A stretch of 64,000 nt of DNA, from assembly GCF_035084215.1 (NCBI RefSeq), contig NC_090352.1, forward strand, positions 33,108,001-33,172,000, given 5' to 3'. The stretch's first letter is position 1. Every line of letters begins with the position of its first letter. Below, piece by piece: positions 10,137-55,496 of this stretch. The DNA comes from Heptranchias perlo (taxonomy: Eukaryota). Both the position numbers and the translations under genes were made by a program. Below the pieces are notes generated by a model, which saw only the letters and a list, made by a program, of their open reading frames with translations, had not been told where the DNA came from and made no database searches.

Positions 10137-10909
10137 GTATGTGCGAGACTATATTTCATTTCGTTAACCATTTGCATTCAGTGAATCATTTTTTTTTGTG
10201 TCCCTCGCCAAATTTAATAGGAAAGTTATGAACACAATAGTTTTATTCCAACAGTGTCGGCTAAATACAATTTGCTTTTCTTTTTCAAATTACCATTCGG
10301 AAAATGCTAGATGATCTCCCGTGGCGTTGCACAACCAAGCATAGTCTCTCGGTGAAGCGGGGTTAAAGGTCGGGACAATTCGACCAGAGTGTGCAGATGT
10401 TATTCAGACCCCATTGTAAAGCTATACATTGTCATTTTTATATATTTCTATTGTAAATACTTATGTCCACATTTATAATTGCCTATCTAAATTTGTCTCA
10501 GTAATTAAACCCTCCTGGTGGTACACTCTACTGGAGAGAGGGTGTAATTACAACATGACAAGTTTATACATATGGGCATCGGAATTGATAATTGAAGAAG
10601 TTGATAGGAAATGTGCACAGATGTAAGATTTTTAATGTATTAAATAATAGATTGTAATTAATGGCAAAATTAATGCAATTTTTTGAGTTTAACTTGATGC
10701 ATATTGCCATTGAAATATGTTTTAACGAAGGAATGTAAACCCCTTAGTATTAAGTGTGCATGATGGACAGTATGTTGTCATATTGGTAAGACACTATATT
10801 GCAGGAGCAGTTTCTAATGCTTGAATCCTTAATATTAAATGGCATTCCAATTTCACACTGATTTTTACTGTACACGTACCAATGGAATGCTTTTATCGGA
10901 TATCCATAG

Positions 10910-11056
10910 GGACCATAAAGCTGTAGGCAGAAGACCATTTGACAAGATGGCTACCTTGTTAGCCTACCTAGGGCCTCCTGAGCACAAGCCTGTAGCTGAC
11001 ACTCATTGGTCCAGCCTCAACCTCACCAGCTCCAAGTTTGAGGAATTCATGACTAG
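10910..11056 (+). CDS. NF1: Neurofibromin exon (legacy exon 27a)
   Basis: ccatag|G GAC...ACT AG|gtaagc; 147 nt; DHKAVGRRPFDKMATLLAYLGPPEHKPVADTHWSSLNLTSSKFEEFMT(R). Confidence 0.98.
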
Positions 11057-11129
11057 GTAAGCAACCATGTACGTATTTTTCAGAGAGACTGGAAACTTGA
11101 AGCTTTCTAACTGAACAGTTTTTTTTAAA

Positions 11130-12182: not shown

Positions 12183-12479
<297 letters not shown>

Positions 12480-27662: not shown

Positions 27663-29072
27663 CTAAACAACCAGTGGTGCCAGCATGGTGAGAATCATGA
27701 GGTCGAGGGTGATCCCTGTACACACATGTGCTTTTGAGGTTGTACCTTGTACTGTTACATTTTGGTCCATACTGTTTGTTGTTCCAGTGGTCAGATTGAT
27801 AGAAGCAGTCTGAATGGTACTTGAGATACTTCTCATTGCAACGTGAGAAGTAGTTGCATTGACGATACTTGGCTCGAAGGTTGACAGTGATACTGATCCG
27901 TTGGTCTGGCTGTTCATAGTTGCATTGGAACTGTTGACCATTGCAGTGGATTTAGTTGAAACAATGATGTCAGAGGTGAGTTCAGGAGCTGTAATGGACA
28001 TTGTGGATGATGGCCTCTTAGTTGTTTTGGCAGTAACACTCGGCATATTGCTTGAACTTTCAGCGCTGGACATTGTTTGATTGGAAATATTCCGAGTTAT
28101 TTGTGTTGCAGGTTTACGAAAGGAGCTTTGTGGTGGAGAATTCAAACTAGTATTGGTGACTAATTGTGAGAGGGGTGAAGTTCCAGTTTCTTGACTAGCT
28201 GAAGTGTGAAATGTACTTTTTTCATTCTGATGTCTGTGAGCTGAAATGTGACTTGGCAGTGTAATAGTACTTGGGTTAGAGGTGGAGGTTCTTTTGTGAC
28301 TGCATGTAGTTTCTTCAGTACATGGGCATCCATGCACAGTTGCTGTGGTCTCCCTTACCCATGTCAACAGATAGAATATATCCTGTTTAGAGTTGCATGC
28401 CCAAGGATTTGTGTTTAGTGTCATCAGTTGCAAACCAGTGAGTTCATTAAAAGTACCATTTGGAATAAATTTGAAATCGTTGTTGTTCAGATACAATTTC
28501 GAGAGACCGGCTTGAGGAAAAGTGCCTGGGAGAATTTGAAACAAGTTGTTGTGTGATAAGTCTAAAGTATTCAAGTTGTTGGGCATGTTGGTTGGGACTG
28601 TCGAGAATCTATTTCCACTGAAATTGAGGAAGTTGAGGCGAGTCAATGTGTTCTTAACGAAAAAAGTTCTTTCAATCATGTTGTTCGACACATCCAGTTT
28701 TTTCAGGTTCCATTGGGTGGCTATGTCATTCTTCACAAGTATTTTGATGCTATTGCTGGCAGCGTGGATTTCCCACAGCGCCACCGGCAAATGAGTAGGC
28801 ATGTTACTGAGCTGATTGCTGGATATGTCAAGGATCCTCATGTTGATGAAACGGGTCAGACTGTTGTCGAGATCTTTAATGCTGTTGTGGGAAATGTTCA
28901 GGGATATGACATTGACCTGGATGCTCTCTGGAAGTGCTGTCAAGCCTCTGCCTGAGCAGTTCACGAACCTGTCATTTTGTGTGCATGAACACTCTGAAGG
29001 GCAGGTGGCCGTGGTTGAAGGTAGGATGAACAAAAGGGCCAAGAGGCAACCAGATAACCTGAAATATCCCAT
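27663..29072 (-). CDS. OMG: Oligodendrocyte-myelin glycoprotein, 469 aa, single coding exon
   Basis: Acceptor cttccttatag|GACAACA ATG (exon starts 29079). Signal peptide MGYFRLSGCLLALLFILPSTTA, LRRNT CPSECSC...VNCSGRGLTALP, about 8 LRRs, LRRCT NPWAC...YLLTW, Ser/Thr-rich stalk and hydrophobic GPI-type C-terminus. Syntenic position inside NF1. Confidence 0.96.
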   Translation of the reverse strand: MGYFRLSGCLLALLFILPSTTATCPSECSCTQNDRFVNCSGRGLTALPESIQVNVISLNISHNSIKDLDNSLTRFINMRILDISSNQLSNMPTHLPVALWEIHAASNSIKILVKNDIATQWNLKKLDVSNNMIERTFFVKNTLTRLNFLNFSGNRFSTVPTNMPNNLNTLDLSHNNLFQILPGTFPQAGLSKLYLNNNDFKFIPNGTFNELTGLQLMTLNTNPWACNSKQDIFYLLTWVRETTATVHGCPCTEETTCSHKRTSTSNPSTITLPSHISAHRHQNEKSTFHTSASQETGTSPLSQLVTNTSLNSPPQSSFRKPATQITRNISNQTMSSAESSSNMPSVTAKTTKRPSSTMSITAPELTSDIIVSTKSTAMVNSSNATMNSQTNGSVSLSTFEPSIVNATTSHVAMRSISSTIQTASINLTTGTTNSMDQNVTVQGTTSKAHVCTGITLDLMILTMLAPLVV

Positions 29073-30188
29073 TGTTGTCCTATAAGGAAGATAATTGAAC
29101 ATTAGATTGTTTGCCCTCTGCAAAAAAAAATAACATTCAATCTGTCATTTTCTAAAATTGCAATATGAGAAGAACATGATCATTTTAAAACAAAATGTTA
29201 CCATGTAACATTCTCTGGATGAGCAGATGGATAAATCATCTGCACGCAGACTAGGATATGAGCATGGACTGCCCAAAGCAACAGGCTGCCTGTTTTCCTC
29301 TGACTACCAGCCCATCTCCCCTCTTTCCACCCCCCCCCCCCCCAAAACAAAATAAAATATACTGTCCAAGTACCAGACCTCAGCTCAGAGTCCCTTCAAT
29401 GAAATGCCTTGGCTGAGGAGATAATCGCATCGAGAATCTCGAGCACATGCCTTGCATTCTAATACTCCTGTGGCACAGTTCCAGTATGGTGCTAGTGCGT
29501 GCCTCATGCCTGGCTGTGTTTAAGAACTTAGATGTCTGAATGCTCCATTATTGTTGCCTGTGATGCAACAACTAGATGTAGAAATGTTCTGGAATGAATA
29601 AATCAATACACAATGTTGCAGCAAATGATATGTGCCAAATTGCTATGGTCGTGTTGTGATTGTGGTTTCTTACGATAGTCCTGCAATAAAACGTTCTTGA
29701 TAAATTACGGATTTTTTAAAAATCTAATTTTGATAGTGTTTTAATTTGTGTAACTTACTGCTCTATTTCTTATGAAACGTTATGGTTTTTTTAATTAAAC
29801 AATTATATCATCAAAAAAGCTGTACTGTGACATTCATAATGATTAAGAAAGGCTAGTTGTAATGATATATTCATTCTGCACTAAACTGCCAGCATAATGC
29901 AAAAATCAGTTCTATTTTGATAGCATCCCCCTTTCATACAAAAAAAATTGCTAAAAGGTTTAGTTCTGTGGGGAAAAAAATCCTGTATACGGTTATTTTA
30001 TTTTATCATTGATAGCAGAATTACAGCTGCTGTCTTGGGTTCTATATTTGCAAGCACTGCGTAAAAATCCATTCTAGCTGTTCTCGACAAATTCTTTTTT
30101 TCTCTGCAGTCTCCGGGAAATGGTGCAAGTGAGAAAAATATTACAAGTAAGAACAAAAAAAAACTTATAGACAACATAGTGGACTTAC

Positions 30189-41077: not shown

Positions 41078-42208
41078 TTAGACTTCCAGCTCAGAGAGCG
41101 GTGGTGGCAAATCGAAATCATTCACAAGATCCAGAAAATCCAATGGAGGAGGGGGAAAGTTTGTATTATTTGGACCTACGTCAGGAACCCCCTGAGGTGG
41201 GCCTCGAGCCTCTGTAACTGTTGCAGGCAGTGGATGTTGTGGGTCATTGTTATTCAGTGGAGCTTGTGCCTCAAGAGGAGGTGGTGGAAAATCTTGACTT
41301 TGTGTTCCATTTACAGTTTGTGTTTGACTTAAAGCTTGTGTTTCTTTTCCTGTTTCATTTTCCATTTTGACTTCAGCAGGCACTATGATCGTTCCTTCAA
41401 TCTCAGGTGAAGAACTGTTGATGATTCCTTCAGACTCTTGCACCTCCATGTTATATTGATCCAGTAAGGATTCACGTTTAGATTTTTTAGACAGAAAGGT
41501 GGTGAGTGAGGGGCGTTTCGCTGGAGCAGCATCGATATCGTTGTCCTCAACTACATGTACAGAATCTTCACCACTGGGGACTGGGCAAGTTCCTGCCCAT
41601 GTGAGGTCCTGTACAGGTTTCTTTTGTGAGCATCTTTTCCACACTGGAATGGCAACTATGATGAGCAACATTAACAACAATATCCCACCGATGATGCAAG
41701 CAACGATCGTGCTTGCAGCCAAGTCACGATCTTGGTACTGGGTCGTTGGCTTACTGGTCGTTGGCTTACTGGTCGTTGGCTTACTGGTCGTTGGCTTACT
41801 GGTCGTTGGCTTACTGGTCGTTGGCTTACTGGTCGTTGGCTTACTGGTCGTTAACTCAGTAGTGGTCTGTTTTATAGTTGCCACGTACGAAGTAGGTTTG
41901 GAGGTCGAACTTGGAATCGATTGTGCCTCAGATGAAAATTTCGATGTGAACTGTGAAGTAACAGAAGGTGTATTTGCCAAGATAGAAGTGTCACTGGGAA
42001 GATCACTTGAAGGCCCACTTATGGTGGTTGGCATACTTGTGATTATCCAGGAAGTTGCAGTGGCCAGGTTACTGGAGTCCTGAAGTGAAGATGATGCACT
42101 TGGATCTGTTACAATATCTGATCCTGTGGATGACTTGTAGTTCACTGTGGTTGTACCCCCAAGGCCCTTTGCCAGTAGTACCAGTATAGTCAAATGGATT
42201 GCTTCCAT
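41078..42208 (-). CDS. EVI2B: EVI2B (CD361), type I transmembrane mucin, 376 aa, single coding exon
   Basis: Signal peptide, Ser/Thr mucin ectodomain and TM IVACIIGGILLLMLLIIVAIPVW. The cytoplasmic KPVQDLTWAGTCP..GE resembles human KPVLNDQNWAGRSPFADGE, and the Pro-rich end LPPPLSELEV is also similar. Lies between OMG and EVI2A. Confidence 0.93.
   Translation of the reverse strand: MEAIHLTILVLLAKGLGGTTTVNYKSSTGSDIVTDPSASSSLQDSSNLATATSWIITSMPTTISGPSSDLPSDTSILANTPSVTSQFTSKFSSEAQSIPSSTSKPTSYVATIKQTTTELTTSKPTTSKPTTSKPTTSKPTTSKPTTSKPTTSKPTTQYQDRDLAASTIVACIIGGILLLMLLIIVAIPVWKRCSQKKPVQDLTWAGTCPVPSGEDSVHVVEDNDIDAAPAKRPSLTTFLSKKSKRESLLDQYNMEVQESEGIINSSSPEIEGTIIVPAEVKMENETGKETQALSQTQTVNGTQSQDFPPPPLEAQAPLNNNDPQHPLPATVTEARGPPQGVPDVGPNNTNFPPPPLDFLDLVNDFDLPPPLSELEV
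41741..41852 (-). repeat. Perfect coding minisatellite, 15 nt x 7.5, encoding (TTSKP)7
   Basis: GGTCGTTGGCTTACT repeated 7 times plus 7 nt, with no mismatches. Confidence 0.97.
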
Positions 42209-45307: not shown

Positions 45308-45380
45308 CACTGATGGAGCTTGGACTTGTGCAGTTGAGGTCGAAGGCTGCTTCTGTTTCTGCAATTGTTGTGCATTACAC
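45308..45380 (-). other. EVI2B: Candidate non-coding exon 1 of EVI2B (5' end approximate)
   Basis: Donor GTG|GTAAGTG at 45308/45307 with ETS/PU-box motifs immediately upstream. Confidence 0.5.
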
Positions 45381-45382
45381 AC

Positions 45383-45404
45383 TAAGAGGAAAAAGTTCCT
45401 CTTA
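45383..45404. promoter_or_regulatory. Inverted double PU-box (PU.1/ETS) at the putative EVI2B promoter
   Basis: TAAGAGGAA-AAAG-TTCCTCTTA; a further GGGAAGT lies at about 45519. Confidence 0.45.
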
Positions 45405-48364
45405 AAGTTAATAACTTGGCATTTATTGTCATACTTGGTAATGAAGCAAATATTCTAAACCCATCTGTGTATGCGCGGCGTTGTGCTGTCACTGGTTAAT
45501 TTTGAGGTTTTCGAAAAAGGGAAGTCAGAACAGTTGTCCGGATATGAAGAAATGAGTTAGAAACCAAGTGTTCTGAGCACTGGCATTTTTACAAAAAATT
45601 GAAGTTTGGAACTAAATCTGCTGAAAATTAAACTGTGAATGTCAAGTTTGCAATGTGATGTAATTTGCTGTTTACTTCTGATACAGTTAGAGAGCTCCTA
45701 TTTATTATAAACTTGTTTTGTGGCATTTTATTTTGAACCTGCCATCCTGGTAAGTCAAGGTTAAACTGTGTGTAATTACACAATTTGTTCTGGTGCAATT
45801 TCGTTCCCAGTACGATTCCTCTGAAATCCTGTGCCTGACTCTCCTGTCTCTTCCCCACCCCAGGGTTTCATTGTGTTTTTGTTGTATAATGCAAGTACAG
45901 TCATTGGGAGTTTTAACCTTCGAAAATAAGTTGTTGGAGAAGCAGCGTGGGCTACTCTCATTTTAGAAAGACTAATTTCAGCCCCTTGCACAATCTCTCA
46001 CTTGAACTCAGCTAGCTGGGTCAGGAAGTTGGCTCTTGGCTAAGCCTCTTGCAGCAATTACATTCGGTGATGAGGTGGTGACTGAGAGGAAATGACCAGC
46101 TGAACCCCACTGAGGAGTGTGCATACCTTTGTTTTCGCCTTCCCCTGTATTGCCCCAAATTGATACTGCCGTTCAAAGCCAGGTTGCTTTATGCAGCTCA
46201 TTAAAGACATTTCTACTTCTGCTTAAAAAGTTGTTACAATTTGGGGAGGAACAACCTCTCTGTTCTATTCTCCCCTCTGCAATATTTCTATTGAGCACTG
46301 GTCTCTACAGTGTGAAATATGGGAGTGCAATTGACACCTGAATGCCCTCTGAAGTTACTTGCATTTGTGAGTCGATCCTAGGGATCAAGAAGTTTATACT
46401 TGGGATTGCAGTTGTTGATAGAACTACTGCAGCGTGCTGCACTCCTCCAATATAAAAGCAATTCTACATTACTCCACCAAATAGGGTTTAACTTGCGTTG
46501 AGGATGAAGTTTGTCCACCTGGGTAAGTGTATGAATTCATATTTTCTTAAAATTTAAGACACAACATCCTCAGTAGATGGCCTAATGTTTATCAGACATT
46601 CAGCTTTTTTGTTTTACCCACGCCCAGTAAAACATTTCAGCACTCTCCACACACCCCCCCCCCCCCCCTGCAAATGGATCTCCCCCATGCCACCCATTAT
46701 CCACAGCCAGGGGGACGGTGATGCTCAAATTGCTTGGGGTGAGAGCAGGGATGATGCTTCCCTCCATCACCTCCCCGTTCACTGTAGAAATAGACCAGCT
46801 TGTACTGGACAAATTCCCTGTAGGGATATGCCTAAGGATTGGCTTGGTGCTGTGAGGGATCACTGGTGTGACACCCGTGTTTGGCTACTCGAACATGCTA
46901 TGCTATGGGTAATATTTTGTGCCCTGTTATGGGCGTTCACGGTCACAGATACTTTGTTACAACAGTTAATTATTTGGTCCCAAGAATGCTATTGCATTGA
47001 GGGTACCGCATATGTTTTTAGCTGCTTAAGAGAAGATGGAAATAAATAGAAGATGGCCCAAACACTTACAACTCGTACACGCACCAAATGTGTTTCATTC
47101 ATTTTCTCGACCAAAGGTAGCTTCCATACGTGAGCATGACCTCCACGTGGAACTTAACATCAGGAAAGGTGTACACTTTTAGCAGAGGGGAGAAAAACAT
47201 TTAATTTTTAAAAAAATGTCACCTCCTTTTCTTGAAATAAATTTTGATGCTAGCCATCTTGTCCTGATAGCTGAGTACAGGAGTGTCTCCTGTGATGAAG
47301 TTCCTAAGCAAAATCCGTCATCTCTTTCAACTGAAGCTCAAAGGACACAAGTGTTGAAACAGAGCAATGAATTTTCAGCCCCCCCCCCCCCCCCCAACCC
47401 AGCAGAAATGGGGTGATGACACAAAAAAAGTGGTAGGCAATGACCTCCTGTCCCATTGCCGTGGCATTATTCCCCCAGGCCTATGGCTGGGTGGCCCACT
47501 GAATCAGTCAGTCGATCCAATTAAAATGCTAATCGGGGTGCTACAATTACATAGGACCCCGCGTGCCATCTTTGGACTGAACTGGGCTGAACATCCGTGT
47601 CCGTAGCTCCTTCTGTAAAGCATGCTGGGATGTTTTGTGTGAAACGCACTATGTAAATAGAAGTTGTATTTATTCCCATATCTCTGTAAATGCCACTCAG
47701 GTTTTGTGTGCCAAAATTGGGCCTATGACTTGCATTATTGATTTTTCTGCTTCTATTTTTCTTCCTTCTCTCAGCATTTCATCTTCGCTTGATGACTCCT
47801 GTAAATTCTTTGTGTGGGCAGTTACAGGTATGGAGCAATGCCTGCCACTCTGATGCAAGTTGTTAGTACACCAGTGTTTGCCAACAGATCATCTGGTGCC
47901 ATTTGTATGCTGTTTTTAATGTAATCATTTCCATAAGTAATGATTTCAATAAATCAGGAAAATACATGACTGGAATCATTGCTTTGTACACTTACTTTTC
48001 AATATGGCATTTGTTTACTTTATGCTTTGTGTGATAAATTCAGTTTGTCAAGTATAGATTAAGGATGAACTAGCATTTAAACTGAATGCAGCCTTTGTCA
48101 TTTATCTTTGGGCGGGTGTGCAGTTCTCACCTTGTGCAAATAAATAAGTTTTTGTGAATACAGATGTAACCCTGGTTACTATTTAACACACAGTTGCCAT
48201 CTATACAAAAATTGCCATTACTACATTATGAATTACTGCATCAACTGTTCAAAACGTTTAAGAAAAGGAGCCTTTGAATGAAATCTGATACATGATTTCA
48301 GATTTCGTGTACCAAAGCTTGATCGCAGTAAAATATCATGCACGCTTGCTCACCCACGTGTGTG

Positions 48365-54710: not shown

Positions 54711-55496
54711 TCATTCTTTTGATGGCTTGGCCTCTTCCTTTGCCTTCAGAGGTATGACTTCTGCCAGCATTACGTTGGTTTCCGCTGACTCGCCTGGCAG
54801 TTGGCTGGAACCAGTAGGCCAGAGACTGGATGTCTTAACAAAGTCAGAATTGCCTCTCATTCGCCGCTTTTTCAGGCTGACCTTGAGATCTGACACCTGA
54901 TAGGCCAAGGCAGCTGTTGATACCAACAAGATAGTGCACAGAATTATTAATATGCCTATTATGATTAAATAAATCAAAAGTTCTCTGCATTTTGTGCTTT
55001 GACTTGAAAGAGAATGCTCAGTAACAATTTCTTTGGTAGTTGTCAAAAAAGGAGTTGTACCATAAGCAGTGTATTCATTTCTCGCGGTTTTCGAAAGAGG
55101 ATTTGCACCATTAGCAACATATTCTTTTTTAGTGGTCACCGGAAAAAGACCCGCACCCTCAGTAACGTATTCTTCCTTGGTCGTTACAAGATGATCTGGA
55201 CCCTCAGTAACGTATTCTTCCTCGGTTGTTACAAGATGATCTGGACCCTCAGTAACGTATTCCTTGGTCGTTACAAGATGATCTGGACCCTCAGTAACGT
55301 ATTCTTTCTCTGTCATTACAAGAAGATCTGGACCGTCAGTAACGTATTCTTCCTCGGTTGTTACAAGATCATCTGGACCCTCAGTAACGTATTCTTCCTC
55401 GGTGGTTGTTTGAAGAGTGTTGGCCTTGATCTGAGCAGACAAAAGGGCCAATATTCCAGCTGCCACCAAGAAAAGTTTTTTTATATATCGATTCAT
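54711..55496 (-). CDS. EVI2A: EVI2A, type I transmembrane glycoprotein, 261 aa, single coding exon
   Basis: Acceptor cattgacag|GTGAAGTCCCAAGAACA ATG (exon starts 55513). Signal peptide ends ..QIKA. TM LIYLIIIGILIILCTILLVSTAALAY and tail RGNSDFVKTSSLWP match recalled human LICLIIIAVLFLICTFLFLSTVVLAN...RSNGDFLASGLWP. Confidence 0.94.
   Translation of the reverse strand: MNRYIKKLFLVAAGILALLSAQIKANTLQTTTEEEYVTEGPDDLVTTEEEYVTDGPDLLVMTEKEYVTEGPDHLVTTKEYVTEGPDHLVTTEEEYVTEGPDHLVTTKEEYVTEGAGLFPVTTKKEYVANGANPLSKTARNEYTAYGTTPFLTTTKEIVTEHSLSSQSTKCRELLIYLIIIGILIILCTILLVSTAALAYQVSDLKVSLKKRRMRGNSDFVKTSSLWPTGSSQLPGESAETNVMLAEVIPLKAKEEAKPSKE
55156..55410 (-). repeat. Coding tandem repeat, 45-nt unit (one 42 nt), 6 copies of TT(E/K)EEYVTEGPDHLV, plus 3 degenerate copies to about 55018
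   Basis: CC(C/G)TCAGTAACGTATTC recurs at 55156, 55201, 55246, 55288, 55333 and 55378. Confidence 0.95.

Follow-up and report, generated by a model that had tools for sequence, protein, structure and literature searches.

The cytoplasmic tail of shark EVI2B carries a two-motif module likely homologous to that of CD43

The EVI2B gene described here lies in a stretch of 64,000 nucleotides of the Heptranchias perlo genome (contig NC_090352.1, positions 33,108,001 to 33,172,000; hereinafter, the window), and its product likely retains an ancestral two-motif tail module that is homologous to that of CD43 (leukosialin, sialophorin, SPN) and is predicted to tie the protein to the actin cortex under the control of phosphorylation. 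With still greater assurance, the sequence comparisons suggest that EVI2B and CD43 are homologous and derive from one leukocyte mucin gene. This kinship is probably real and apparently unreported: no statement linking EVI2B to CD43, sialophorin or leukosialin was found in print by a search outside of which most subscription journals lay, the co-mentions in the available literature texts come from unrelated omics work in which EVI2B is named once or twice per paper, and one of the papers that deal with EVI2B and EVI2A (PMC6896060) draws no link to CD43 in its available part. The curators of Pfam 38, PANTHER and Ensembl may have connected the two families already.

The EVI2B locus and its product

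The open reading frame (ORF) at 41078-42208 is the shark orthologue of EVI2B and is ordinary as a gene. Its identification in the original prediction, made from position and the Pro-rich end, holds: the ORF lies inside an intron of NF1, on the opposite strand, with OMG on one side and EVI2A on the other, and is assigned to the Pfam family of EVI2B. The locus includes the following features (window coordinates):

41078-42208, minus strand: coding sequence of EVI2B, a single exon that encodes a type I mucin of 376 aa (ORF, PF27913, locus)
45308-45473, minus strand: EVI2B 5' non-coding exon, spliced to 42272 over a 3,035-nt GT..AG intron; its 5' end is simply where the longest contig stops
54711-55562, minus strand: neighbour EVI2A, synteny marker (PF05399, E 1.8e-16)
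27663-29102, minus strand: OMG-like neighbour, synteny marker, with LRRNT, LRR and Ser/Thr stalk domains, named from architecture and position
~10890-11057 and ~12366-12479, plus strand: two exons of the host gene, upstream of the nested genes (six-frame translation), which we take to be NF1 from matches to short NF1 motifs

The order on the minus strand of the 64-kb window is OMG-like gene, EVI2B, EVI2A, with the NF1 exons on the plus strand; a downstream NF1 exon was not located within the window, and no further gene of the EVI2B type in that NF1 intron is found among the 209 window frames. Human EVI2B has a single coding exon behind a 5' non-coding exon, and the shark gene has the same layout, with an intact ORF and a spliced 5' non-coding exon, the joint between 45308 and 42272 being present in contigs from three of the four runs (one sample, guessed to be RNA). 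The 230 nt of the 5' UTR that are covered contain four upstream ATGs, and run X2 has a G>T change at 41534, in the third position of codon I225, which was read as synonymous.

PF27913, the EVI2B family in the Atlas naming, is precomputed on the shark protein (P0001) and on 18/18 shark and ray relatives (19/19 elasmobranch sequences); a local Pfam scan gave no PF27913 match on shark EVI2B. The shark gene shares with EVI2B/CD361 the NF1-intron locus, the single coding exon, and the succession of mucin, transmembrane (TM) helix, WAG block and Pro-rich end, and the profile matches that carry the EVI2B name range from sturgeon to mammals. Among the 18 relatives, 4 are named EVI2B by NCBI and 2 leukosialin or leukosialin-like; following the latter name, and given that motif 2 is CD43-like, the ORF could be regarded as shark CD43 itself. 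This reading is highly implausible, considering that the ORF is nested in NF1 between OMG and EVI2A, that all 19 elasmobranch sequences carry PF27913, that both leukosialin-named proteins fall inside the cartilaginous-fish EVI2B clade of the tree (see below), and that the sequence is of the EVI2B type both in motif 1 and at the Pro-rich end.

Some EVI2B orthologues (P0015, P0016, P0023, P0075) have misleading NCBI names: the bamboo shark and skate proteins are called leukosialin(-like), the Callorhinchus protein bears a LIM-kinase-like name, and that of Latimeria is called rickA. The neighbouring EVI2A ORF contains an in-frame 147-nt GT..AG intron (54914-55060, minus strand) that is spliced out in contigs of three of the four runs (one sample); its removal deletes residues ~168-216, nearly the whole TM helix, and lowers the best 19-residue hydropathy from 3.3 to 0.4, from which a soluble EVI2A isoform is predicted. 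In both X1 and X2, the bin depth over EVI2A agrees with the spliced path by itself, but rarer forms are dropped from contigs. The shark EVI2A ectodomain includes an acidic 15-residue tandem repeat (55000-55400, minus strand). At 89-1826, the plus strand of the window carries a retroelement with frameshifts that by eye looks Penelope-like, its stretches being of the reverse-transcriptase and GIY-YIG-like kinds.

Shark EVI2B has a cytoplasmic tail of 186 residues, and the mean pLDDT of its Atlas structure model is 0.43. Its parts, all on the minus strand, are:

42155-42208, minus: predicted signal peptide, residues ~1-18 (hydrophobic N-terminus by eye, conserved in the shark/ray alignment)
41729-42154, minus: mucin-like stalk that has a Ser+Thr content of 49% and contains TTSKP seven times (composition)
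41639-41719, minus: TM helix, residues ~164-190, followed by KR (mean Kyte-Doolittle hydropathy over 19 residues of 3.24, at residue 169)
41567-41599, minus: motif 1, the WAG block WAGTCPVPSGE, residues 204-214 (translation, family conservation)
41465-41518, minus: motif 2, KRPSLTTFLSKKSKRESL, residues 231-248, in which S234, S243 and S247 are predicted to accept phosphate
41276-41290, minus: FPPPP, predicted EVH1-type ligand, residues 307-311 (motif)
41144-41158, minus: second FPPPP, predicted EVH1-type ligand, residues 351-355 (motif)

Both tail motifs proposed from the nucleotide sequence are real, being encoded at residues 204-214 and 231-248 in exact agreement with the proposed bounds, 41465-41599. 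The two FPPPP motifs, which match the definition of an EVH1 ligand, are flanked by acidic residues, like Ena/VASP EVH1 ligands.

Conservation of the tail motifs in the EVI2B family

A family profile built from the TM and tail stretches of 13 of the 19 shark and ray sequences was compared with 1.84 billion representatives, resulting in 107 matches at E<=0.001; 30 matched clusters were looked up, of which 19 are named EVI2B, 11 are unnamed or otherwise named, and none is named leukosialin. A tree of 30 rows, consisting of the shark protein and 29 organism-named sequences, with five unnamed look-ups and other sequences left out, supports cartilaginous fish (100/100), ray-finned fish (99/99) and tetrapods (94/91) and agrees with the species tree in the main groups.

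In the shark and ray alignment, W204, A205, K231-L235, T236, F238, L239, K242, R245 and S247-L249 are invariant (16/16 sequences). Over 123 family sequences, the WAG block is nearly invariant as well (W 123/123, A 122/123, G 121/123), with the W doubling as the anchor used for cutting the aligned regions. The 123 sequences were grouped into 20 cartilaginous, 78 ray-finned and 25 lobe-finned/tetrapod ones, the last two groups being assigned via motif 1 and by hand (names confirm 11/78 and 13/25), which makes group statistics on motif 1 partly circular. The first phosphoacceptor of motif 2 is S or T in 20/20 cartilaginous, 78/78 ray-finned and 24/25 lobe-finned/tetrapod sequences; the Phe of this motif is found in 20/20, 76/78 and 2/25, respectively, and both distal S/T in 15/20, 71/78 and 0/25. 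A distal [FL]PPPP occurs in 15/20 cartilaginous, 3/78 ray-finned and 22/25 lobe-finned/tetrapod tails, compared with means of 0.1-0.5 in shuffles that leave proline runs unmodelled.

Given that sharks and ray-finned fish are alike in motif 2, the fish form appears to be the ancestral state, which decayed in lobe-finned vertebrates. In lungfish EVI2B, motif 2 is still fish-like, with Thr at the first site, and is partly intermediate; in the coelacanth, it has already diverged. Shark EVI2B differs from lobe-finned/tetrapod EVI2B in retaining F238 and the S243/S247 pair, and from other EVI2B proteins in having TCP after WAG, as opposed to RSPFADG or PSPFL. The basophilic-kinase module originally proposed to be shared by EVI2B and CD43 accordingly stands, as a predicted module, for shark and ray-finned EVI2B, where the distal serines are common; as a module that is mostly a fish state, it fails for lobe-finned/tetrapod EVI2B beyond the first site.

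Relationship to CD43

Most of the CD43 motifs quoted in the original prediction are confirmed by published peptides; the four residues that lie between these peptides are presumed. The human CD43 tryptic peptides include one with the WAG block and one that starts at the last serine block, QGSLAMEELK (PMC5413510, Table 1), and the peptide RPTLTTFFGR is phosphorylated at position 3 (PMC8711668, Table 2), the Thr with which shark S234 aligns. Two-block matrices (14 + 24 columns) were built without any CD43. On the matrix of cartilaginous and ray-finned EVI2B (98 tails), CD43, represented by one human sequence that was picked after the fact and summed by hand, with mostly simulated nulls, scores 36.9 bits (motif 1, 14.6; motif 2, 22.3), which corresponds to P of 2e-10 to 5e-9 per tail (exact nulls, 600 placements, three compositions). 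The other matrices give 31.7 bits for all 123 sequences (P 8e-9 to 2e-7), 24.3 for cartilaginous, 27.9 for ray-finned and 4.8 for lobe-finned/tetrapod EVI2B (P 0.007 to 0.04; exact nulls, 600 placements), and the last of these scores would explain why a link between EVI2B and CD43 has been missed.

On the fish matrix, shuffled tails reach 15.8 bits at best (0/6,000 higher), and the real-sequence controls reach 18.1 bits (maximum of 105 ectodomains) and 13.1 bits (best of the 209 window frames after EVI2B itself). For a proteome of human size, taken to offer ~2e8 free placements, the expectation by chance is estimated at ~0.002 before a fivefold correction for the models tried. Held-out true EVI2B orthologues score 16.8-53.8 bits, and CD43 is higher than 5/25 of them. 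The match still scores 32.4 bits (P<=7e-8) once the four presumed residues are left out, and it keeps 23.6 bits (P<=1.3e-5) if nine columns of basic residues and Ser are dropped, so that kinase consensus alone is insufficient to explain the match.

The claim that the second shark motif is closer to CD43 than to human EVI2B is upheld by proxy, with other mammals and tetrapods in place of the human protein: on the cartilaginous matrix, CD43 motif 2 scores 19.1 bits, above 25/25 lobe-finned/tetrapod EVI2B sequences (maximum 18.0, median 9.9), in an ungapped scoring that penalises amphibians. Motif 1 behaves in the reverse manner, lobe-finned/tetrapod EVI2B being closer to the shark (median 17.2 bits, n=25) than CD43 is (5.2 bits).

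The profile and word-indexed searches, which had been expected to return both EVI2B and SPN, returned no SPN: there is none among the 107 profile matches (1.84 billion representatives), and none in three word-indexed protein searches (0/16, 0/20 and 0/20), which yielded cartilaginous-fish EVI2B apart from one unrelated weak match (P0022). CD43 is out of reach of the word-indexed searches because they need several shared 5-residue words, and with 24 bits in the tail and two longer linkers CD43 would likely fall under the 36-bit cut-off of the profile search, so that its failure is weak counter-evidence. PDB searches with two profiles gave matches confined to the TM helix. An Atlas feature query with TM helix and tail gave opalin-type matches and one EVI2B cluster at 0.85, and a query with the whole protein, PF27913 being skipped, gave MUC15, TMEM108 and others, all below 0.9; a leukosialin cluster is absent among the matches listed by both queries and could be distant, in the no-family set, or PF27913-bearing.

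Like CD43, shark EVI2B is a type I, Ser/Thr-rich mucin with a WAG block in the tail, a basic-basic-P-S/T-L-T-T-F block in which the published phospho-Thr of CD43 falls at the position of S234, and a distal serine pair four residues apart. It differs in the FPPPP-rich C-terminus, which CD43 presumably lacks, and in a shorter W-to-motif-2 spacing, with motif 2 itself one residue shorter. The locus is also different, with NF1, OMG and EVI2A as neighbours, whereas SPN lies beside QPRT and C16orf54 (PMC11211608), and the shark tail starts with KR followed by CSQKKPVQD, without the juxtamembrane KRR and F3b segment of CD43 (PMC3069020, PMC10249358).

The paralogy of EVI2B and SPN proposed at the outset is thus backed by matrix scores far beyond simulated chance and by none of the searches. 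Convergence, in which sites for basophilic kinases and a common short docking motif arose separately in two unrelated leukocyte mucins, is an alternative: short motifs recur in disordered tails, no search joins the two families, the juxtamembrane segment and C-terminus are unlike, and CD43 has just 4.8 bits on the tetrapod matrix. Three details of the alignment also speak against homology, namely, Pro in 103/103 bony-vertebrate matches at position five after W, where CD43 has Gln; the CD43 spacing of 35 between W and motif 2, one beyond the EVI2B family range of 21-34; and the poor match of motif 1 to CD43 beyond WAG plus two or three residues. However, 23.6 bits remain without the kinase-consensus columns, the two motifs occur in the same order with similar spacing, CD43 motif 2 aligns gap-free with ray-finned EVI2B in a 19-residue register, and the overall architecture is the same, which makes convergence quite unlikely and homology the preferred reading.

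If the two genes are homologous, two scenarios of their separation can be considered, and under either of them the fish-like motif 2 of CD43 implies that the split predates the change in tetrapod EVI2B. TNFAIP1, TAOK1, SEZ6, ALDOC and CORO6 are located on 17q11.2 near NF1. Combined with these genes, the location of SPN with KCTD13, TAOK2, SEZ6L2, ALDOA and CORO1A (PMC11211608) favours a whole-genome-duplication pair; the 17q11.2 paralogues are not named in the available parts of two NF1-deletion papers (PMC8535936, PMC11186880), and neither EVI2B nor SPN in that of the PMC4504502 supplement, which is not a gene list. On this synteny, a split in the early vertebrate genome duplications is the most likely scenario, held at about even confidence. 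SPN and C16orf54 are reported to be mammal-limited, with SPN absent from fish (PMC3484866), so that this origin requires loss or non-detection.

Alternatively, SPN could be a later single duplicate of EVI2B from the bony-fish or tetrapod stem that took over the phospho-module subsequently lost by tetrapod EVI2B, in which case EVI2B of sharks and other fish would be the pro-orthologue of both genes and do the job of CD43. Such an origin is consistent with the reported lack of SPN in fish (PMC3484866), with the lack of a second shark family in the profile or word-indexed searches, with the loss of the distal serines of EVI2B (0/25) in the very lineage with known SPN, and with the lungfish motif. 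Given, however, that a shark SPN could fall below the search threshold of ~36 bits, that coelacanth motif 2 has already diverged, and that the SPN region, as a presumed duplication-derived paralogue of 17q11.2, is an unlikely random landing site, we consider later duplication somewhat improbable and keep genome duplication as the favoured scenario.

Predicted function and wider implications

In mouse CD43, phosphorylation of S76 follows chemokine treatment and can be carried out in vitro by PKC-theta, S72 serves as another phosphorylation site, and tail residues 62-78 contribute to ERM binding, which S76 phosphorylation lowers (PMC3069020). Shark S243 and S247 have the same four-residue spacing as S72 and S76, to which they would correspond on the basis of that spacing, and with the CD43 data this likeness leads us to predict that motif 2 is a cortical anchor switched by phosphorylation. 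The O-glycosylated stalk would keep distance from the membrane as a spacer; motif 2, which is basic and amphipathic, would attach to ERM proteins or to acidic membrane, a task to which residues 62-78 contribute in CD43; and basophilic kinases would phosphorylate S234, S243 and S247, loosening the hold of motif 2 as phosphorylated S76 loosens that of the CD43 tail. A partner common to EVI2B and CD43 may dock on the WAG block, and the FPPPP repeats, an EVI2B feature, may recruit EVH1-domain proteins; lobe-finned and tetrapod EVI2B would have retained the WAG block and the first site and dropped the distal serine pair. By analogy, this phospho-ERM mechanism is a tentative one for the shark tail, somewhat short of an even prospect. 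Against plain transfer, the shark tail is without the KRR and F3b segment, the context of S247 is RRxS-like (PKA type), and PKA inhibition left CD43 S76 unchanged (PMC3069020).

A near-membrane YxV, which is part of the FERM F3b ligand in PSGL-1 (SELPLG; PMC10249358), is present in 8/20 cartilaginous EVI2B tails and lacking in that of Heptranchias. The C-terminal decapeptide of PSGL-1 ends in LHSFLP (PMC3371841), and its C-terminal end has 11 almost perfectly conserved residues (PMC2174952); LHSF[LF]P is found in motif 2 of 8/78 ray-finned EVI2B (P0025, P0027, P0035, P0038, P0051, P0056 and relatives). Unlike motif 2, the PSGL-1 block has no basic residues ahead of it and no distal serines. 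Scored against the ten leading columns of motif 2, the decapeptide reaches 10.2-13.6 bits, with a per-tail P of 5e-4 to 9e-3, which is too weak on its own, so that kinship with PSGL-1 is a lead. PSGL-1 presumably also lacks a WAG block. A broader proposal, speculative and on balance doubtful, is that EVI2B, CD43 and PSGL-1 would be what survives of a single leukocyte mucin that existed before the duplications (copies at 17q11.2, 16p11.2 and 12q24.11), each beside a small single-pass partner (EVI2A, C16orf54, TMEM119), which would share an unrecognised S/T-L-x-S/T-F-L/F tail motif and a common binding partner, with fish EVI2B as the revealing bridge; a Pfam scan of shark EVI2A found no TMEM119, C16orf54 or PTPRCAP family at E<=10.

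No established signalling mechanism was found for EVI2B (CD361), a blood-cell surface protein, whereas the tail of CD43 has been mapped by experiment, so that the kinship, if true, offers direct tests on EVI2B. The same partner would then be sought for the near-invariant WAG block in both proteins, and the first basophilic site would be a candidate regulator of EVI2B; transfer to human EVI2B would be partial because the distal serine pair is gone there. Should the relationship hold, the origin of CD43, reported as mammal-limited, would move to early jawed vertebrates, and the suggested place to look for CD43-like function would be fish EVI2B.
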